Source: a virus (lineage: Duplodnaviria > Heunggongvirae > Uroviricota > Caudoviricetes). From it: DNA of 14,950 bases. Below, in pieces: positions 514 through 10,813 of the stretch; positions within the stretch are counted from its first letter, which is position 1, and each line of letters opens with the position of its first letter. A program made the position numbers and the translations under genes. A model generated the notes under the pieces. The model saw only the letters and a program-made list of their open reading frames with translations. It searched no databases and was not told the origin of the DNA. The DNA is taken from the IMG/VR virus record IMGVR_UViG_2630968558_000006; one strand, 5' to 3'.

Positions 514-669
514 TTACTCCTCAGGTTCGTAAGCTGTGAAGACAGCGACCTCCGTCTGGCCGGTTCGGATTCGTACCTCGCAGAGGTCTTTCCTCGTTAC
601 CAGTGCCGTCACTATGACGGTTAAACAGATGACGATCAGGGCGATTAACATCGCCTTTTGCTGCTTCAT
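514..669 (-). CDS. hokD: Hok-family membrane toxin HokD/RelF (51 aa)
   Basis: Translation MKQQKAMLIALIVICLTVIVTALVTRKDLCEVRIRTGQTEVAVFTAYEPEE matches my recall of K-12 HokD; AAGGAG Shine-Dalgarno before the ATG at 669. The track ORF 514..726 is an in-frame upstream extension, not the real start. Confidence 0.85.
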   Translation of the reverse strand: MKQQKAMLIALIVICLTVIVTALVTRKDLCEVRIRTGQTEVAVFTAYEPEE

Positions 670-1166
670 AGCCTGCTTCTCCTTGCCTTTCGGCACGTAA
701 GAGGCTAACCTACATGTGTCTAGCATGAAATTGGCCTCAGATTAATGTTAAGCGTCTTGCAGGACGCGTAATGTTAACTGGGGCTTTTCTCTATCTGCCG
801 TTGGTGTTCATGCCCGAGGCAGATAGCCTCAAGCACCCGCAGCCATTCTACTTAACTACCGTTACCTCGCCAATATGAAATCAATCAGAAAGGTGATCCA
901 TAAGAACAATAACAAGACAATAAATTGCCATTACAGCCACAATAGCCAGCGTGCATTTGAGAACCAGCACATAAATCTCCTGCTCTTGACGTATACAGGC
1001 ACTGATAAATATGTGTCTTCGTGCTCGTTACTTCAATACGTAAGCGTCAGTTGCGCGTAATCAAATCAGACAACCGACTTTAAACCAGGGACAAACAGCA
1101 GGTAAAATAATCAAACGTTATTTTAAGCCATATCATGGCTGCAAGATTTCCTCTAATTTCAACAAG

Positions 1167-1281: not shown

Positions 1282-1968
1282 TCATTCCTGTCCTTCTTTA
1301 CCGTAGTGCAGTTGACCAATTTTGATTAGAGGGCGTCCCTGAGATTTGCGGTGTAGATTGGTATCGCGCAGTGAATACACGCAGCCACAATATTCCTGCT
1401 GATAGAATTGTTCGCGCTTGCTGATTTCAATCATGCGGGAAGAGCCGCCCTGTTTTCGCCAGTTATAATCCCAGTACACCATGCCCGGATAATGCGCGAC
1501 GGCTCGCCGTCCACAGTCGTTAACCTGCTGCATATTTTTCCAGCGTGAAATGCCCAGTGAGCTACTGATCACACTGAAACCATTTTCAGCGGCATACAGT
1601 GCAGTCCGCTCAAAACGCATGTCAAAACACATGGTACAACGGATCCCTCGTTCAGGCTCCCATTCCATTCCTTTGGCTCGCTCAAACCAGTTGTCTGTGT
1701 CGTAATCAGCATCAATAAATGGCACGCCGTGTTGTTTAGCAAAGCGAATATTCTCATCCTTACGAATTAAATACTCTTTCTGAGGATGAATGTTCGGGTT
1801 GTAGAAAAAGATGGTGTAGTCGATTCCCGAGGCCTGAAGCGCCTCCATCACTTCACCGGAACATGGAGCACAGCAAGAGTGCAGTAATAGTTTTTTTGCC
1901 CCGTTTGGGAGCTCCAATTTGGGGCGTTTGAAATCAGCAACAGTCATAAATGTGTTTATGAGGTTCAT
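1282..1968 (-). CDS. QueH/DUF208-like protein (putative epoxyqueuosine reductase homolog). Start uncertain: ATG at 1968 or 1947; the track ORF extends to a GTG at 2061.
   Basis: Motifs [18 protein letters not shown] (CxxC) and [10 protein letters not shown], which I recall as the cysteine signature of the DUF208/QueH family. No strong Shine-Dalgarno at any candidate start. Confidence 0.6.
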
Positions 1969-2000
1969 GAAAATAGCAAAAAGTGTAGCATCAGAACGGG

Positions 2001-2207
2001 CTATCGGAAACAGATGTCTAAATCTGGTAATGTCTGCTTTTGATGCAAAGCAGACAACCACGGCAGCGCACGAAAATCAGCGATAATGTCGGGATTAATA
2101 ATCGGGTGACGTCCATCACATAGCGAATGTTCCTCTTTCCTGATATCGCTAAATATCGACCATTCGTCATTCTTATCGAACCAGAGCATGCGACTGCCAC
2201 AGCACAT
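2001..2207 (-). CDS. Possible small hypothetical protein (68 aa from ATG 2207; the track ORF runs from GTG 2303 and would overlap the upstream gene)
   Basis: Fills the 262-nt gap between the 140-aa gene and the QueH-like gene; contains [15 protein letters not shown]. No convincing ribosome-binding site, so this is weakly supported. Confidence 0.3.
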
Positions 2208-2230
2208 GTCGAGAATGGTAGCCGATGTAC

Positions 2231-2653
2231 TCACAGCATCACCTCCCGATAATTCCCCTGATAAAACGTCAGAACACGCTGCATAACTTCGCTCTTCCGG
2301 CACTCGCGACAGATTATGTTTAGACGACTGTCGTAGCGGCGTATTTCTCCGTCAGGTAATGACCAGATAAGGTCCGGATCAACCACAGCAGGTTTCTTCA
2401 CCTTTGCCCTCGAGAGTTTTTTGCGGGCGTTTTGCCAGTCCTTACGCGCCTGTTCAGACGGGAATAACCCGTAGCCGGAGTTGTATACATCGCCACTGGC
2501 TACCAGCTCTCTGGCAAGAACGCTCATCAGATATCTAGTCGCACCTGTTTTAGCTTCCAGTTGCCGTAACGTCTCACGACCGCTCTGGCGCACGAGTTCC
2601 ACCACCTGCCCTTTAATTTTTTCCCGCTCTTCTTGTGTAAAAACTTTTGCCAC
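2231..2653 (-). CDS. Hypothetical phage protein (140 aa) directly downstream of the replication initiator
   Basis: GTG start at 2653 preceded by a strong AAGGGGGA Shine-Dalgarno; basic, with a CxxC element (ICRECRK). Function not recognised. Confidence 0.6.
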   Translation of the reverse strand: MAKVFTQEEREKIKGQVVELVRQSGRETLRQLEAKTGATRYLMSVLARELVASGDVYNSGYGLFPSEQARKDWQNARKKLSRAKVKKPAVVDPDLIWSLPDGEIRRYDSRLNIICRECRKSEVMQRVLTFYQGNYREVML

Positions 2654-2693
2654 AAGTCCCCCTTAAAATTACCTCATGACCTGAAATCAACAC

Positions 2694-3659
2694 TTATCCT
2701 CTGAAACCAGGCGGAATTTCTGTATCCGGTTCAGAAATATGATTAACACAACGCTGTACAGGTGAACGTCCCAGGCGGATGACCAGTTCGTCCCATTTTT
2801 CGCGGAGCTTTGACGGGCTCATGATGTTTTTTACCCAGAATGGATCTCGCTGAACCCGACCAAACATTTCGCAAATTTGTCTGTGGCTTCTGCCATCCAG
2901 CATCCGCATTGTGCGCACGTCATTGGCCCAGGCAGTCCAGTTAGGCTCTTTTGGTCGCATGATCTCGCCATCATCACTGGCTGCCTGTTCGTAGAGACCC
3001 ACGATCCGCCCCCAGATCCACTGCGCACACGCCAAATCCTCCCTGCTACCCCACTGGCGTTTTTTCGCACTAAACACAACCGCGTCGGAGTTCCGGGTTA
3101 AAAAATCCTGTTCAGTCGTCTGCGGGTCCGGTTGCGAAGCTTCCGGACGAAAAGTGTTTTTATTCTCTGTAGTAATCTCTGTTGTATTCTCTGTAAGATC
3201 ATCAGGCCATTTTGACCCGATGACATTGGGTCGTTTTGAACCAATGGAGCGTTTCATTTTGACCTCTTCCATCGTATCATTTAGACCTGATGGAGCAGCG
3301 CATTTTGAACCGATGGATACGCTCAATTTACCACCATCTAAAAGCTCGCACCCATAGTTGATCGTGTAGAAATTGGTCATGTCGCGCTTTGATTTATTGA
3401 GCTTTTCGCAACGCAAAAGCCCCAGCGTTTTCAGACTTGCAAACGCGCGCTTTAACGTTGACTCTGACCAGAATGGGAACTGTTCCAGCCATTGTTCCGT
3501 TGTGTTATAAATCCAGCGGACACCATCACATTCCATACCGGAATTAGTATCTCTCAACCAGTAATGCAACTGCTGCAACACAATGGCCTCGTTTAAGCCA
3601 ATCTTCATCGCAAGCTGTGTGTTTATAACCAGTGGGCGTTCAGCAAAAAGAAGACTCAT
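2694..3659 (-). CDS. Phage replication initiator, O-like (about 321 aa from ATG 3659; the track ORF begins at an upstream TTG 3713)
   Basis: Sits downstream of the Cro-like dicC and a cII-position ORF; carries an internal direct-repeat (iteron-like) array at 3209-3317 encoded as repeated IGSK peptides. The ATG at 3659 overlaps the end of the upstream ORF (translational coupling). Confidence 0.6.
   Translation of the reverse strand: MSLLFAERPLVINTQLAMKIGLNEAIVLQQLHYWLRDTNSGMECDGVRWIYNTTEQWLEQFPFWSESTLKRAFASLKTLGLLRCEKLNKSKRDMTNFYTINYGCELLDGGKLSVSIGSKCAAPSGLNDTMEEVKMKRSIGSKRPNVIGSKWPDDLTENTTEITTENKNTFRPEASQPDPQTTEQDFLTRNSDAVVFSAKKRQWGSREDLACAQWIWGRIVGLYEQAASDDGEIMRPKEPNWTAWANDVRTMRMLDGRSHRQICEMFGRVQRDPFWVKNIMSPSKLREKWDELVIRLGRSPVQRCVNHISEPDTEIPPGFRG
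3209..3317. repeat. Iteron-like array: five about 23-bp direct repeats, consensus CATTTTGA(A)CC-GATGG, starting at 3209, 3233, 3256, 3279 and 3302
   Basis: Direct reading of the sequence; regular 23-24 bp spacing; the third unit is degenerate in its right half. Preceded by three TCTCTGT-containing repeats at 3163-3198. Confidence 0.6.
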
Positions 3660-4161
3660 AATTCCATCCAGCTTTTTGTTGGTATTGCTGTCGATACGCA
3701 AGCTTGAAAGCAATTGCTTTTTCTATAAGTTCGTCAGTTTCACGATCCACTACGGCAGGATCAGCAAAAAGCAGTCCGGACTCCACCACATCGCCATATT
3801 CTTTGTTTAACCCGGCGATCATATACGTGATGCTTTTTCCGTCACTAATTTCACGATATAACCTGAAATCATTAATCCGGATAGCCTCCATAATTGCAGG
3901 CACTAGCGCCATGAACTTTTCACGCTTATCCCTGGTGTCGATAGCCTTCCAGCGTTCGAATATCTTCACTCGATTAACGCCAAGCGCTCGCTGATCAACC
4001 GCGCCACCTTCATCTGTGACACGCTTAACATCGATGTTCGGGCGCTCTTTCAAAGCCCAGAATGCTTCAGTGATTAATATCGTCGCCTGCTCCTGTGTCA
4101 TTCCTGGTCGACATATCCAGGCATCCAGAGCCTCACGAGCCTGTTCAGGAGTGATTTTCAT
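3640..4161 (-). CDS. Hypothetical phage early protein (173 aa) in the cII-equivalent position
   Basis: ATG at 4161 overlapping the dicC stop by 17 nt; protein-like sequence. Function not recognised. Confidence 0.55.
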   Translation of the reverse strand: MKITPEQAREALDAWICRPGMTQEQATILITEAFWALKERPNIDVKRVTDEGGAVDQRALGVNRVKIFERWKAIDTRDKREKFMALVPAIMEAIRINDFRLYREISDGKSITYMIAGLNKEYGDVVESGLLFADPAVVDRETDELIEKAIAFKLAYRQQYQQKAGWNYESSFC

Positions 4162-4375
4162 TGTTCAACCGCCCCGCCCGCTTCGTCTTACGATATTCGT
4201 CATAAACTTTGGGGTCATACTGAAGCTCCCCGCCAGATGCCTCCTGTAGACGCATCGCGCGACCTTCGGGAACTAAATCCCCTTTCCAGCTATAAAGCGA
4301 AGCCAAACGAATACCAGCTGCTTGTGCAAGTTTTGTTTTTGAACCGAAATACAAAAGAGCGTCAGTTTTAAGCAT
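4145..4375 (-). CDS. dicC: DicC, Cro-like regulator (76 aa)
   Basis: Translation MLKTDALLYFGSKTKLAQAAGIRLASLYSWKGDLVPEGRAMRLQEASGGELQYDPKVYDEYRKTKRAGRLNNENHS matches my recall of K-12 DicC; AAGGTG Shine-Dalgarno; divergent from dicA. Confidence 0.9.
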   Translation of the reverse strand: MLKTDALLYFGSKTKLAQAAGIRLASLYSWKGDLVPEGRAMRLQEASGGELQYDPKVYDEYRKTKRAGRLNNENHS

Positions 4376-4458
4376 TTAAAACACCTTGATTGTTAGTTAT
4401 AACTAACAAAATAGATGTTAACAAAAACATAGTCAATACGATTTAGCATTAGCTAACT
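4376..4458. promoter_or_regulatory. Divergent dicC/dicA promoter-operator region with a 20-bp perfect palindrome TTGTTAGTTATAACTAACAA (4390-4409)
   Basis: Palindrome verified by reverse-complementing; additional ATGTT/AACAT inverted arms at 4414-4429 and a TTAGCTAA palindrome just before the dicA ATG. No canonical Shine-Dalgarno precedes dicA. Confidence 0.6.
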
Positions 4459-4866
4459 ATGGATACAAAAAATTTAACTATCGGCGAACGCATTAGGTAT
4501 CGTCGGAAAAACCTCAAACACACCCAAAGGTCTCTTGCTAAAGCCCTGAAAATCTCCCATGTGTCTGTATCACAATGGGAACGGGATGATAGTGAACCTA
4601 CAGGGAAGAACCTTTTTGCCCTCAGCAAAGTATTGCAATGCTCACCAACATGGATTCTATTTGGCGATGAAGACAAGCAACCAACACCACCTGTTGAGAA
4701 GCCAGTTGCCTTATCTCCCAAAGAACTAGAGCTCCTTGAGCTGTTTAATGCACTGCCAGAATCAGAACAGGATACCCAGCTCGCCGAAATGCGAGCTCGA
4801 GTAAAAAACTTCAATAAACTCTTTGAAGAATTACTAAAAGCCCGTCAGCGGACAAATAAAAGATAA
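4459..4866 (+). CDS. dicA: DicA, C2/cI-like HTH repressor (135 aa)
   Basis: Translation MDTKNLTIGERIRYRRKNLKHTQRSLAKALKISHVSVSQWERDDSEPTGKNL... matches my recall of K-12 DicA almost throughout. Confidence 0.9.
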   Translation: MDTKNLTIGERIRYRRKNLKHTQRSLAKALKISHVSVSQWERDDSEPTGKNLFALSKVLQCSPTWILFGDEDKQPTPPVEKPVALSPKELELLELFNALPESEQDTQLAEMRARVKNFNKLFEELLKARQRTNKR

Positions 4867-6005: not shown

Positions 6006-6063
6006 TTTCTGGTGACGTTTGGCGGTATCAGTTTTACTCCGTGACTGCTCTGCCGCCGTTTTT
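6006..6063 (+). ncRNA. dicF: DicF small regulatory RNA (about 53 nt plus terminator U-run)
   Basis: TTTCTGGTGACGTTTGGCGGTATCAGTTTTACTCCGTGACTGCTCTGCCGCCG followed by TTTTT matches my recall of K-12 DicF (possibly one 3'-terminal difference); located between the ydfB-like gene and dicB as in K-12. Confidence 0.85.
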
Positions 6064-6702: not shown

Positions 6703-9174
6703 ATGAGTAAAGTCTTTATTTGCGCCGCTATTCCTGACGAACTGGCAACAAGGGAAGAAGGCGCTGTGGCTGTAGCCACAGCCATTGAAGCTGGCGACGA
6801 ACGCCGTGCTCGAGCAAAATTTCACTGGCAGTTCCTGGAACATTATCCGGCTGCTCAGGACTGCGCTTATAAATTTATTGTCTGCGAGGATAAACCTGGC
6901 ATACCCCGCCCTGCCCTCGATTCATGGGATGCTGAATATATGCAGGAAAACCGCTGGGATGAGGAGTCTGCTTCTTTTGTCCCGGTTGAGACTGAATCCG
7001 ATCCGATGAACGTCACTTTTGACAAGCTGGCCCCTGAAGTACAGAACGCTGTCATGGTTAAGTTCGACACATGTGAAAACATCACCGTTGATATGGTTAT
7101 TAGCGCACAGGAATTGTTGCAGGAAGACATGGCAACATTCGACGGACATATCGTTGAAGCGTTGATGAAAATGCCAGAAGTTAACGCCATGTATCCGGAG
7201 CTTAAGTTGCACGCCATTGGGTGGGTTAAGCATAAATGTATTCCTGGTGCTAAATGGCCCGAAATTCAGGCAGAGATGCGCATCTGGAAAAAACGTCGCG
7301 AAGGTGAACGCAAGGAAACCGGAAAATACACGTCTGTTGTTGATCTCGCCCGCGCCAGAGCCAATCAACAGTACACTGAAAATTCAACAGGAAAAATCAG
7401 CCCGGTCATTGCTGCCATTCATCGCGAATACAAGCAGACATGGAAAACACTGGATGACGAACTGGCCTACGCTCTCTGGCCTGGTGATGTGGATGCCGGA
7501 AACATTGACGGCAGCATCCATCGCTGGGCAAAAAAAGAAGTTATCGACAACGACCGCGAAGACTGGAAGCGTATCTCGGCATCAATGCGCAAACAGCCTG
7601 ATGCCCTTCGCTACGACCGCCAAACTATTTTTGGCCTTGTCCGTGAGCGTCCGATCGACATTCACAAAGATCCCGTAGCACTGAACAAATATATCTGCGA
7701 ATACCTGACGACAAAGGGCGTGTTTGAGAATGAAGAAACAGACCTAGGCACTGTTGATGTTCTCCAGTCATCAGAAACACAAACTGATGCAGTGGAAACT
7801 GAGGTATCTGATATCCCAAAAAATGAAACCGCGCCGGAAGCTGAACCATCTGTAGAGCGTGAGGGGCCGTTCTATTTCCTCTTCGCAGATAAGGACGGAG
7901 AAAAATACGGTCGCGCAAACAAACTTTCTGGTCTGGATAAGGCACTGGCTGCTGGCGCCACTGAAATCACAAAAGAAGAATATTTTGCCCGAAAAAATGG
8001 CACATACACGGGCTTACCGCAAAATGTAGATACCGCTGAAGATTCAGAACAACCAGAGCCGATAAAAGTTACCGCTGACGAAGTAAACAAAATTATGCAG
8101 GCAGCCAATATCAGCCAGCCTGACGCCGATAAGTTGCTTGCTGCATCACGTGGTGAATTTGTTGAAGGGATTAGTGACCCGAATGATCCGAAATGGGTTA
8201 AGGGGATCCAGACCCGCGATTCTGTGAACCAGAACCAGCATGAATCGGAACGGAACTACCAAAAAGCGGAACAAAACAGCCCAAATGCGTTACAAAACGA
8301 GCCAGAAACGAAACAGCCTGAACCAGTGGCGCAACAGGAAGTGGAAAAAGTCTGCACCGCCTGCGGTCAGACCGGCGGCGGCAACTGCCCTGATTGTGGC
8401 GCGGTGATGGGCGACGCAACATACCAAGAAACATTCGATGAAGAGTATCAGGTTGAAGTTCAGGAAGATGATCCGGAGGAAATGGAAGGCGCTGAACATC
8501 CACACAAGGAGAACACTGGCGGCAATCAGCATCACAATAGCGATAATGAAACTGGCGAGACGGCAGATCACTCAATTAAGGTGAACGGTCATCACGAAAT
8601 CACATCCACCAGCAGGACGTGTGACCATCTAATGATCGACCTTGAAACCATGGGAAAAAATCCTGATGCCCCGATCATCTCAATAGGTGCAATATTTTTC
8701 GATCCGCAAACCGGAGATATGGGACCCGAATTTAGTAAGACTATCGATCTGGAAACTGCTGGCGGAGTCATTGATCGGGACACCATTAAATGGTGGCTTA
8801 AGCAATCACGCGAAGCGCAATCTGCCATTATGACCGATGAAATCCCGTTAGATGATGCACTGTTACAATTGCGGGAATTTATCGACGAAAACTCCGGTGA
8901 ATTTTTTGTTCAGGTCTGGGGAAATGGAGCCAACTTCGACAACACGATTTTGCGCCGTTCATACGAACGGCAGGGGATCCCCTGCCCGTGGCGTTACTAC
9001 AACGATCGCGATGTACGCACAATCGTTGAGCTGGGGAAAGCCATAGACTTCGATGCCAGAACGGCTATTCCATTCGAAGGTGAGCGCCATAATGCACTTG
9101 ATGACGCCCGTTACCAGGCAAAATACGTTTCAGTTATCTGGCAAAAACTGATCCCGAGTCAGGCTGATTCTTAA
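6703..9174 (+). CDS. ydfE: Prophage exonuclease (823 aa): N-terminal YdfE-like region, acidic low-complexity linker with a CxxC...CxxC zinc ribbon, C-terminal DnaQ-like DEDDh 3'-5' exonuclease domain
   Basis: N-terminus MSKVFICAAIPDELATREEG... matches my recall of the K-12 ydfE remnant. Zinc ribbon CTACGQTGGGNCPDCG (about 8350-8400). Exonuclease motifs MIDLETMG (Exo I), GNGANFDNTIL (Exo II) and HNALDDARY (Exo III) in about 8620-9174. GAGG Shine-Dalgarno 10 nt before the ATG. Confidence 0.85.
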   Translation: MSKVFICAAIPDELATREEGAVAVATAIEAGDERRARAKFHWQFLEHYPAAQDCAYKFIVCEDKPGIPRPALDSWDAEYMQENRWDEESASFVPVETESDPMNVTFDKLAPEVQNAVMVKFDTCENITVDMVISAQELLQEDMATFDGHIVEALMKMPEVNAMYPELKLHAIGWVKHKCIPGAKWPEIQAEMRIWKKRREGERKETGKYTSVVDLARARANQQYTENSTGKISPVIAAIHREYKQTWKTLDDELAYALWPGDVDAGNIDGSIHRWAKKEVIDNDREDWKRISASMRKQPDALRYDRQTIFGLVRERPIDIHKDPVALNKYICEYLTTKGVFENEETDLGTVDVLQSSETQTDAVETEVSDIPKNETAPEAEPSVEREGPFYFLFADKDGEKYGRANKLSGLDKALAAGATEITKEEYFARKNGTYTGLPQNVDTAEDSEQPEPIKVTADEVNKIMQAANISQPDADKLLAASRGEFVEGISDPNDPKWVKGIQTRDSVNQNQHESERNYQKAEQNSPNALQNEPETKQPEPVAQQEVEKVCTACGQTGGGNCPDCGAVMGDATYQETFDEEYQVEVQEDDPEEMEGAEHPHKENTGGNQHHNSDNETGETADHSIKVNGHHEITSTSRTCDHLMIDLETMGKNPDAPIISIGAIFFDPQTGDMGPEFSKTIDLETAGGVIDRDTIKWWLKQSREAQSAIMTDEIPLDDALLQLREFIDENSGEFFVQVWGNGANFDNTILRRSYERQGIPCPWRYYNDRDVRTIVELGKAIDFDARTAIPFEGERHNALDDARYQAKYVSVIWQKLIPSQADS

Positions 9175-9246: not shown

Positions 9247-9498
9247 ATGAGCGAAGTAATCATGATTGTCTCTCCCGGCAAATGGGTATCCGAAGAGCAG
9301 TTAATTGCGCTGAAAGGAATAAAAAAAGGTACGTTAAAAAAGGCCCGGGAAAAATCGTTTATGGAAGGAAGGGAATATAAGCATGTCGCTCATGACGGTA
9401 TGCCATGGGATAACAGTCCATGCTTTTACAACCTGGAAGAAATTGATCGCTGGATTGAGCGCCAGGCATCAGCAAGACCAAGACGTCATCTTACTTGA
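9247..9498 (+). CDS. Excisionase-like protein (83 aa)
   Basis: Immediately upstream of int; contains a GREY motif in a context resembling lambda Xis (KDGREYLFHESA versus MEGREYKHVAHDG); small and basic. Confidence 0.6.
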   Translation: MSEVIMIVSPGKWVSEEQLIALKGIKKGTLKKAREKSFMEGREYKHVAHDGMPWDNSPCFYNLEEIDRWIERQASARPRRHLT

Positions 9499-9517
9499 CT
9501 AAAAGCCACACTAACTA

Positions 9518-10813
9518 ATGAGAGAAGTTGAAATGAAATATCCGACAGGCGTGGAAAACCATGGAGGGAAATTACGTATCTGGTTTGTTTATAAAGGCGT
9601 AAGAGTCAGGGAAAACCTGGGGGTTCCTGACACAGCAAAAAACAGGCGCGTTGCAGGTGAGCTACGCGCCTCTGTTTGTTACGCAATAAAAACTGGTGTT
9701 TTCGACTATGCAAAACAGTTTCCCTCCTCACGCAATCTGGAAAAATTTGGTGAGACCCGACAAGATTTAACCATAAAAGAACTGGCTGAAAAATTTCTGG
9801 CACTGAAAGAAACTGAAGTCGCAAAAACATCACTCAACACATACCGTGCCGTCATCAAAAATATCCTGAGCATAATCGGTGAAAAAAATCTTGCCTCATC
9901 GATTAATAAAGAAAAATTACTGGAGGTTCGTAAAGAGCTACTGACTGGATACCAGATCCCCAAAAGTAACTATATTGTTACACAACCAGGGAGATCGGCT
10001 GTAACTGTAAATAATTACATGACAAATCTTAACGCCGTGTTCCAGTTTGGTGTTGATAACGGTTACCTGGCAGATAACCCGTTTAAGGGGATCTCGCCAT
10101 TAAAGGAATCAAGAACCATTCCGGATCCTCTTTCGCGGGAGGAATTCATCCGTCTTATCGATGCGTGCAGAAATCAGCAAGCCAAAAATTTATGGTGTGT
10201 TTCTGTTTATACTGGCGTTCGCCCTGGTGAGCTGTGTGCACTTGGATGGGAGGACATAGATCTGAAAAATGGAACAATGATGATCAGGAGAAATTTAGCA
10301 AAAGACCGTTTCACGGTACCAAAAACACAGGCGGGAACCAATCGGGTCATTCATCTTATTAAGCCAGCAATCGACGCTCTCCGGAGTCAGATGACATTAA
10401 CGAGACTGAGCAAAGAGCATATCATTGATGTTCACCTCAGAGAGTATGGCAGAACAGAAAAACATAAATGCACCTTTGTTTTTCAACCTGAAGTGTCAGC
10501 GAGAGTAAAAAATTATGGTGACCATTTTACCGTTGACTCAATAAGGCAGATGTGGGACGCAGCGATAAAACGTGCCGGACTCCGCCATCGAAAATCATAT
10601 CAGTCGAGACATACTTATGCCTGCTGGTCGCTGACAGCTGGTGCTAACCCGGCATTTATAGCAAACCAGATGGGCCATGCAGATGCGCAAATGGTATTTC
10701 AGGTATACGGAAAATGGATGTCTGAAAACAATAATGCACAGGTAGCTTTGTTAAATACACAGTTAAGCGAGTTTGCCCCAACCATGCCCCATAACGAAGC
10801 AATGAAAAATTAA
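9518..10813 (+). CDS. Lambda-family tyrosine integrase (431 aa; alternative ATG at 9533)
   Basis: Size and position next to the host junction; C-terminal tyrosine-recombinase-like segment (...HRKSYQSRHTYACWSL...HADAQMVFQVYGKW); corresponds positionally to intQ of K-12 Qin, which is defective there. Confidence 0.85.
   Translation: MREVEMKYPTGVENHGGKLRIWFVYKGVRVRENLGVPDTAKNRRVAGELRASVCYAIKTGVFDYAKQFPSSRNLEKFGETRQDLTIKELAEKFLALKETEVAKTSLNTYRAVIKNILSIIGEKNLASSINKEKLLEVRKELLTGYQIPKSNYIVTQPGRSAVTVNNYMTNLNAVFQFGVDNGYLADNPFKGISPLKESRTIPDPLSREEFIRLIDACRNQQAKNLWCVSVYTGVRPGELCALGWEDIDLKNGTMMIRRNLAKDRFTVPKTQAGTNRVIHLIKPAIDALRSQMTLTRLSKEHIIDVHLREYGRTEKHKCTFVFQPEVSARVKNYGDHFTVDSIRQMWDAAIKRAGLRHRKSYQSRHTYACWSLTAGANPAFIANQMGHADAQMVFQVYGKWMSENNNAQVALLNTQLSEFAPTMPHNEAMKN

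Follow-up and report, generated by a model that had tools for sequence, protein, structure and literature searches.

A segment of the DNA analysed here is very probably the theta-type replication origin of a lambdoid prophage of Escherichia, lying inside the linker-coding part of the prophage's own initiator gene. The DNA, referred to as the window, is a stretch of 14,950 nucleotides from IMG/VR record IMGVR_UViG_2630968558_000006, and positions are those of the window unless gene nucleotides (nt) are given. The segment consists of an array of 23-bp repeats (iterons) followed, in the direction of the gene, by three 12-bp repeats (12-mers). An original prediction made from the sequence alone had proposed a prophage replication origin at this place, and the sequence analysis supports that proposal. 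It also bears out that the repeats lie inside an O-like initiator gene, which runs on the minus strand at 2694-3659. The segment is best read as an iteron-type origin in the style of those of phage lambda and plasmid pSK41, and from this analogy we infer initiator binding, melting, helicase recruitment and origin activity.

The array comprises five 23/24-bp iterons that start on the plus strand at 3208, 3232, 3255, 3278 and 3301, with spacings of 24, 23, 23 and 23 bp. Cores of the CATTTTGACC type begin at 3208, 3255, 3278 and 3301, a more diverged copy, CGTTTTGAAC, begins at 3232 (variants differ by one or two mismatches), and the consensus of the five units is GGTCAAAATGACC. When at most one mismatch was allowed, the core CATTTTGACC matched six times in the window, four times within the 100-bp array, against 1.76 matches expected window-wide. 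The 23-bp autocorrelation at the array reached z = 7.6, above 5.96, the highest value that any lag or position gave when the window was Markov-shuffled 200 times. The five repeats of about 23 bp that had been predicted are thus real by repeat finding and by autocorrelation, although their starts had been placed one base too high, and the lack of a periodic repeat that would have counted against them was not what we found. A degenerate sixth unit continues the register upstream in the gene direction, with CAATTTACC at 3324-3332; orthologues carry a good copy, GAGGTCAAAGTGACC, in this slot. In gene coordinates the array covers nt ~320-455 and starts at nt ~343 (320 with the degenerate copy), in the linker-coding stretch. 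The prophage part of the window contained no other repeat cluster of comparable strength, except for a 21-bp in-frame periodicity in an exonuclease gene.

Three 12-mers, TATTCTCTGTAG, TAATCTCTGTTG and TATTCTCTGTAA, occupy 3161-3196 (gene nt 463-499), as located by Tandem Repeats Finder and a repeat finder. They correspond to the three TCTCTGT-containing repeats at 12-bp spacing that the original prediction placed at 3163-3198. We presume that this tract is the unwinding element. The stretch 3157-3196 is the least stable 40 bp of the initiator gene (dG -45.6; the window averages -55.1) and belongs to the least stable 2.2% of the window, in which the weaker stretches listed fall between larger open reading frames or at the ends of coding regions. 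The tract has a GC content of 0.33, with 23 A among 45 bases of the sense strand. Comparison by eye with the DnaA box and integration host factor consensus sequences gave no match to the 12-mers, and a link to the DnaG CTG trinucleotide was too weak to claim.

We compared the constraint on DNA with that on the encoded peptide. IGSK is encoded by three of the five units (SIGSKC, SIGSKR and VIGSKW), and the other two read PSGLND and EEVKMK while still keeping GGTC(A/T)AAATG. Because 23 is not a multiple of three, the units rotate through all three frames; IGSK recurs as a by-product of repetition in the DNA, seen in a single frame, and the predicted translation of the repeats as IGSK units therefore holds for three of the five. 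In a codon-aware alignment of ten orthologues, whose proteins are 68-95% identical over the N-terminal domain and linker, mean pairwise third-position identity was 0.58 in the N-terminal domain, itself strongly conserved (112 columns), 0.84 in the iteron cores (16 columns; Mann-Whitney p 2e-4 against the N-terminal domain) and 0.97 in the 12-mers (12 columns; p 1e-6). At synonymous third positions the values were 0.62, 0.97 and 0.98, respectively. Since third-codon identity is high in the cores and 12-mers compared with the N-terminal domain, selection acts on the DNA. First and second codon positions of the spacers were less conserved than those of the N-terminal domain (0.77 versus 0.90), which argues against a merely younger segment. 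Constraint is spread more evenly over the three codon positions, the pattern expected of a DNA element. The pattern that had been named as evidence against an origin, homologues that conserve the protein and lose the DNA repeats, was reversed: the DNA repeats are kept while the peptide changes.

The initiator belongs to a large family. Its N-terminal domain (amino acids 1-110) matched 10,265 protein clusters at 50% identity (E<=1e-3), and no Pfam-A model matched this family in the scans run. The whole gene is present in 1849 of 5426 complete E. coli genomes, about a third, where it is labelled 'hypothetical protein' or 'phage O protein family'. Some family proteins of 400-880 amino acids contain two tandem copies of the N-terminal winged-helix domain. 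Homologous loci were collected, with a single one for each species, and 79 were usable; they come from Enterobacterales, Pseudomonas, Acinetobacter, Moraxella, Comamonas, Caedibacter, Bacillus, Staphylococcus, lactobacilli and clostridia. A gene was scored as periodic when the strongest periodicity in its first 1100 nt was 22-24 bp at an offset of 230-420 nt. By this measure, 63 of the 79 genes showed 22-24 bp periodicity directly after the N-terminal domain; flanking control segments did so in 4 of 147 cases. In 48 of the 79 loci the array was immediately followed by 2-5 copies of (T)AC(A/C)AGAGA(W/C)TAC at 11-13 bp, with at least three copies in 39; as background, 702 kb of flanking sequence held four adjacent pairs of CAGAGA repeats at this spacing. 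In several Firmicute and other loci the CAGAGA step is 11 bp, the frame is shifted, and the peptides read RDFTEISSETS or RDYPETTTEN instead of TENTTEITTEN. The recurrence at 48 loci, the 11-bp steps and the differing peptides therefore indicate that the 12-mer is conserved across phyla more than the iterons are. A chromosomal copy of the initiator in Shigella flexneri is frameshifted and has several stops, and it retains the iterons and three 12-mers (retrieved locus 2501-3012).

The consensus iterons of the family are palindromic. Consensus units of 70 loci are 11-15-bp palindromes with a CA-AWW-TG centre, and the outer arm positions change symmetrically between clades. The arms are GGTCA..TGACC in Escherichia, Xenorhabdus, Serratia and Staphylococcus, GGACA..TGTCC in Hafnia, Mixta and Pantoea, GGGCA..TGCCC or TGCA..TGCA in Pantoea, Pseudomonas, Citrobacter and Comamonas, GATCA..TGATC in Limosilactobacillus, ACCCA..TGGGT in Moraxella and CCGACA..TGTCGG on a Paracaedibacter plasmid. 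All five arm positions pair in 29 of the 70 loci and four of five in 30, which is borderline for any single locus against shuffled consensus sequences. Such symmetric co-variation would be expected of a dimeric DNA-binding domain with shifting specificity.

The Paracaedibacter plasmid is a 15-kb circle with parA, a CopG-family gene and cargo, and its sole Rep candidate is a family member that adjoins parA. This gene carries the palindromic CCGACAAAATGTCGG twice, 22 bp apart, at the usual offset, and then the 12-mer-like TACAAAGAATACAGACAAT. The plasmid is suggestive as an independent hint of replicon function and is not proof of it. A match to a 22-kb L. plantarum 'plasmid' turned out to be a phage remnant and is uninformative on autonomous replication.

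Mosaic relatives show which parts travel together. Phages mEp460_4F5 and SfII share 96.6% DNA identity over the part of the gene that follows the 12-mers, starting with the very next nucleotide; in the part that precedes this junction they are unrelated. The SfII initiator has an HTH_36 (PF13730) N-terminal domain and, at the equivalent place in the gene (retrieved SfII locus 1627-1790), an array of 5-6 copies of TCAAAATCTGACCCG at 15-bp spacing, without 12-mers. It thus resembles the initiator studied here in C-terminal domain, gene position and location of the array, as a member of the SfII/pPR9-type HTH_36 initiators, and differs in N-terminal domain, repeats and 12-mers. On this sequence comparison SfII serves as a natural swap control, and its array is probably a second, uncharacterised origin type. 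Conversely, Klebsiella phage vB_VIPKPNMC05 keeps the N-terminal domain, the 23-bp iterons and the 12-mers with a Phg_2220_C C-terminal domain. Hafnia phage yong2 keeps the N-terminal domain and iterons with the same C-terminal domain type; a 12-mer array was not found there. Similarity to the window stops at gene nt 496-535. Because the breakpoints of the mosaics lie immediately past the 12-mers, the N-terminal domain, iterons and 12-mers are inherited as one unit, which ties both DNA elements to the N-terminal domain. The third-codon test, the frame rotation, the symmetric arm changes between clades and the module junctions together agree with iteron-type theta origins in general, in that the repeats are selected as DNA and co-vary with the binding domain.

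The initiator itself consists of a winged-helix N-terminal domain, a disordered linker, a lambda-O-like C-terminal domain and a DnaT-like tail. It matches phrog_391 'replication initiation O-like' (E 3.5e-90); no Pfam match was obtained at E<=0.01 for the whole protein or at E<=10 for the N-terminal domain alone, and a profile search against PDB sequences returned only noise. An AlphaFold2 model built on a 74-sequence alignment had a mean predicted local distance difference test score (pLDDT) of 65. In this model residues 10-105 are confident (pLDDT 82-93, topology H-H-E-E-H-H-E-E), residues 110-178 are disordered (pLDDT <50), residues 183-296 form the helical C-terminal domain, and the tail is disordered. 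The iterons and 12-mers encode amino acids ~113-167, which coincide with the disordered linker. A fold search placed the N-terminal domain nearest to the N-terminal domains of RepA_N and DnaD, and we presume that it is the iteron-binding domain. The C-terminal domain is 34% identical to that of lambda O over 148 amino acids (BLASTP, E 1e-26), and tblastn matched O of lambda, 933W and HK225.

The tail may account for a missing partner. We found no helicase or loader domain (P-, DnaC- or DnaB-like) among the window open reading frames scanned, and the region fetched from phage HannyBb, which is 98% identical to the window over 2600-3800, has no annotated helicase-loader gene. Directly downstream of the initiator, a P-type (or DnaC/DnaB-type) gene is absent and a DUF977/Ren-like gene stands instead; in lambda, P sits between O and ren. 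E. coli DnaT ends in ...VNTVSEPDSQIPPGFRG, and 13 of its last 19 residues are identical to the initiator tail. Of the 79 loci, only ones from Enterobacterales have a tip of the IPxGFRG type, and this is true even of members whose C-terminal domain differs. Many members outside the enterobacteria end in acidic-aromatic tips (…DDLPF, …EPDFDF, …SYWD) that resemble the C-terminus of SSB. DnaT-like and SSB-like tips may explain the missing P/DnaC gene. The portion consulted of a 2026 primosome preprint assigns no partner to the extreme C-terminal tail of DnaT (PMC12871339).

The closest known arrangement is that of lambda. The lambdoid rule is an ori in the middle of O made of iterons and an AT-rich tract, and O binds A/T-rich single strands (PMC7466680). 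As in the lambdoid initiators of lambda, 933W and P27, the segment lies mid-gene between the parts that encode the N- and C-terminal domains, and both types carry 4-6 dyad-symmetric iterons spaced ~20-24 bp apart. The iterons of lambda O begin at nt 348, with spacings of 20, 24 and 23 bp, and precede an A-rich tract; here they start at nt ~343 with spacings, in gene order, of 23, 23, 23 and 24 bp and precede the 12-mers. Common to both are also a weakly paired A-rich tract 3' of the iterons as the gene reads, homologous C-terminal domains and a location in the pR operon, where cro and a cII-like gene precede the site. The predicted lambda-ori architecture is thus upheld: in-gene iterons and a weakly paired flanking tract match lambda O in position. 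There are also differences. In sequence the N-terminal domain shows no relationship to its lambda O counterpart (no match to Phage_rep_O, PF04492; hhalign probability 0.2%), and lambda has a P gene where this prophage has none but a DnaT-like tail, so that two features of lambdoid origins, the Phage_rep_O N-terminal domain and the downstream helicase-delivery gene, are lacking, while the in-gene dyad-symmetric array, the adjacent 3' melting tract and the lambda-O-like C-terminal domain are present. The lambda iterons (ATCCCTCAAAACGAGGGA / tCCCTCAAAACGAGGGa) differ in sequence from GGTCAAAATGACC and share a CAAAAYG centre between symmetric arms, and the A-rich run of lambda is generic, unlike the three sequence-conserved 12-mers. 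In lambda, one copy of CAGAGAAT occurs as well, ~50 bp beyond the last iteron (retrieved lambda locus 435-580 compared with window 3155-3320). These likenesses in the CAAAAYG centre and CAGAGAAT are perhaps coincidence, because the N-terminal domains have no detectable sequence similarity.

Two further systems bear on the reading. In pSK41, a winged-helix N-terminal domain of ~120 amino acids in Rep binds repeats central in the rep gene, the ori-encoded peptide is a dispensable linker, the C-terminal domain is host-specific, and N-terminal domain and ori are exchanged between pSK41 and pPR9 as one ~500-bp module (PMC5703833). RepA_N replicons are alike in having central in-gene repeats that encode the linker, here shown by position and predicted disorder. 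They are unlike in that the initiator has no sequence match to Pfam RepA_N (PF06970), though the RepA_N N-terminal domain is among those closest to its own in fold, in their setting (large Gram-positive plasmids rather than phages and prophages), and in the C-terminal domain, which here is lambda-O-like or Phg_2220_C. The 12-mers, in turn, resemble the repeats of the DNA unwinding elements of oriC, RK2 and F: three short direct repeats at about a helical turn, in the least stable DNA beside an initiator-binding array. The oriC 13-mers (GATCTnTTnTTTT) differ in sequence from ACAGAGAWTAC, and the element here lies inside a coding region, its melting being putative. In oriC, RK2 and F, one strand of these repeats is read by the initiator after melting. 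By analogy the 12-mers are probably read specifically, because of their one-helical-turn spacing, sequence conservation and inheritance with the N-terminal domain; for the specific role proposed for them we regard the chances as about even.

A pathway of initiation can be proposed on this basis. Dimers formed by the N-terminal winged-helix domain would occupy five or six dyad-symmetric iterons (family consensus GGTCA-AAA-TGACC, 23 bp). The resulting nucleoprotein complex would stress the adjacent A-rich tract of three ACAGAGAWTAC 12-mers, which would melt. The lambda-O-like C-terminal domain, probably together with the DnaT-like tail, would then recruit the host helicase without a phage loader. 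Transcription from the rightward pR-like promoter would traverse the site in the fashion of lambda; as laid out in the sequence, the transcript would cross cro and the cII-like gene before reaching the origin.

We considered other explanations of the repeats. They might be initiator sites for control only (autoregulation, titration or handcuffing, exclusion of related phages), with replication starting elsewhere, which we consider improbable. Plasmid iterons serve initiation and control alike, and cloned lambda ori iterons inhibit lambda-type phages (PMC3349717). However, the array is paired with an adjacent tract of low stability and conserved sequence, both sit where lambda and pSK41 have proven origins, and, the exonuclease-gene periodicity excepted, the prophage part offers no comparable cluster; a control role would supplement the origin role and not supplant it. 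It is still less probable, indeed barely credible, that the periodicity reflects a linker peptide (IGSK, TENT/TEIT) selected at the protein level, with the DNA repeat as by-product. Three units do encode (S/V)IGSK, the 12-mers encode TENTTEITTEN, and the 12-bp period is divisible by three. However, two of the five units encode unrelated peptides in other frames with the DNA core kept, conservation at synonymous third positions is 97-98%, compared with 62% in the well-conserved N-terminal domain, the 11-bp CAGAGA steps of Firmicutes shift the frame and change the peptide, and the region is predicted to be disordered, the equivalent peptide of pSK41 being dispensable (PMC5703833).

Highly unlikely, too, is an origin of the repeats in neutral slippage or duplication, or a function as unrelated sites such as a partition centromere, packaging sites or sites for a CII-type activator. 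Slippage can make tandem repeats and the neighbouring gene is cII/YdaT-like, but the cores are kept while the spacers diverge, and in different phyla the same core and period are still found where protein identity is 40%. The repeats also co-segregate with the initiator N-terminal domain and not with cII-like, par or terminase genes, which were not among the annotated genes at the Klebsiella and Hafnia phage loci and on the Paracaedibacter plasmid (parA there apart), the Firmicute loci lying outside annotation. CII-binding sites in particular were rejected, since a TTGC-N6-TTGC pattern is missing and the repeats accompany the N-terminal domain into phages and a plasmid without an adjoining cII-like gene.

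Several observations weigh against an origin at this segment, or against parts of the proposal. About one fifth of the family genes, mostly from Bacillus and Neobacillus, have no clear in-gene array. The iterons of the window are imperfect, with weak right half-sites (TGCGC, TGATA, TGAAA, CGACC, TGGCC), and only their consensus is palindromic. Third-position identity is also raised in the spacers (0.78) and in the 40 nt after the 12-mers (0.75), and part of the signal could be a regional effect of a more recent shared history of the segment. The helicase-loading route is pure inference. In the literature on the initiator family we found no report of electrophoretic mobility shift, footprint, origin cloning, two-dimensional gel or marker-frequency experiments. 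In a text search the iteron and 12-mer cores turned up nothing but primers and unrelated matches, and work on the 'Eru' units of Shiga toxin phages, on the orf13 repeats of TP901-1 and on coding-region prophage iterons held nothing on this family.

The surroundings of the segment are those of a lambdoid early region (see table). Over 2600-3800 the phages HannyBb, PhiR42_1 and mEp460_ev081 are 98% identical to the window. The QueH-like gene may have a role in modification of phage DNA or tRNA. An 823-amino-acid gene at 6703-9174 (+) ends in a Rv2179c-like 3'-5' exonuclease domain. Leaving the iterons aside, it contains the window's strongest periodicity (lag 21 bp, z 7.9, ~8223-8340, +); the repeat finder did not resolve its units, and since 21 is a multiple of three and the repeat is in frame, it is probably a seven-residue peptide repeat.

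Table. Features of the origin segment, the initiator gene and their surroundings in the window
Feature	Position	Strand	Remarks
hok/sok toxin-antitoxin locus	514-838	-	Hok PF01848; sok RNA RF01794, 115 bits
QueH-like epoxyqueuosine reductase gene	1282-2061	-	prophage early region; PF02677, E 2.7e-65
Short DNA-methyltransferase-like open reading frame	2001-2303		neighbour of QueH-like gene
DUF977 / LygF / Ren-like gene	2231-2653	-	next gene after initiator
Initiator gene	2694-3659	-	321 amino acids, ATG at 3659; open reading frame and translation
Initiator, C-terminal tail	2697..2756	-	...VNHISEPDTEIPPGFRG; NF002770 DnaT match, residues 302-321
Initiator, C-terminal helical domain	2772..3113	-	amino acids 183-296; homologous to lambda O C-terminal domain
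Three 12-mers with flanks (presumed unwinding element)	3155..3200	-	(T)ACAGAGAWTAC in gene sense; A-rich sense strand
Iteron 5 (gene order)	3208..3223	-	TCATCGGGTCAAAATG; encodes VIGSK; 24 bp from iteron 4
Iteron 4	3232..3247	-	CCATTGGTTCAAAACG; encodes SIGSK
Iteron 3	3255..3270	-	GGAAGAGGTCAAAATG; third reading frame, EEVKM; 5' flank unlike other units
Iteron 2	3278..3293	-	CCATCAGGTCTAAATG; other reading frame, PSGLN
Iteron 1	3301..3316	-	CCATCGGTTCAAAATG, plus strand CATTTTGAACCGATGG; encodes SIGSK
Degenerate sixth iteron	3324..3339	-	gene sense AGATGGTGGTAAATTG, core GGTAAATTG; 23-bp register with array
Initiator, N-terminal winged-helix domain	3336..3659	-	amino acids 1-108
cII/YdaT-like gene	3640-4161	-	early-right operon
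P22-Cro-like gene	4145-4375	-	early-right operon
pR-like promoter	4408..4436	-	upstream of cro; consensus scan only
cI-like repressor gene	4459-4866	+	
DicF small RNA	6007-6058	+	RF00039, 72.5 bits
Excisionase and integrase genes	9247-10813		host genes from ~11000

An in-gene origin in the linker-coding region is already known, as textbook knowledge for lambda and as an established case for pSK41, and the gain here is one of breadth and detail rather than a new concept, the architecture being known in principle. We found no description of this large family of winged-helix initiators, of the palindromic iterons at 23 bp, of an ACAGAGAWTAC element that spans phyla or of the loader-less arrangement. 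A bolder and rather doubtful extension is that these form a cross-phylum class of origins in which the 12-mers are a specific element for melting and helicase loading that the initiator itself reads (as single-stranded DNA, for example) and the C-terminal tip mimics a host replication protein. If true, the DnaT IPPGFRG tail in Enterobacterales, or SSB-like tips elsewhere, would plug the phage into host restart or helicase loading, and no P-type loader would be needed. The arm sequence of the iterons would predict incompatibility and exclusion specificities of replicons; the Hafnia-type initiator, for instance, is predicted to favour GGACAAATTGTCC. For annotation, the combination of winged-helix domain, 23-bp palindromic iterons and ACAGAGAWTAC repeats provides a usable rule for the replicons of prophages, phages and plasmids, with a range that extends from Enterobacterales to Firmicutes, and the segment would offer vectors a compact origin. 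The 12-mers and the DnaT-like tail offer leads on how a loader-less initiator melts DNA and recruits the host helicase.

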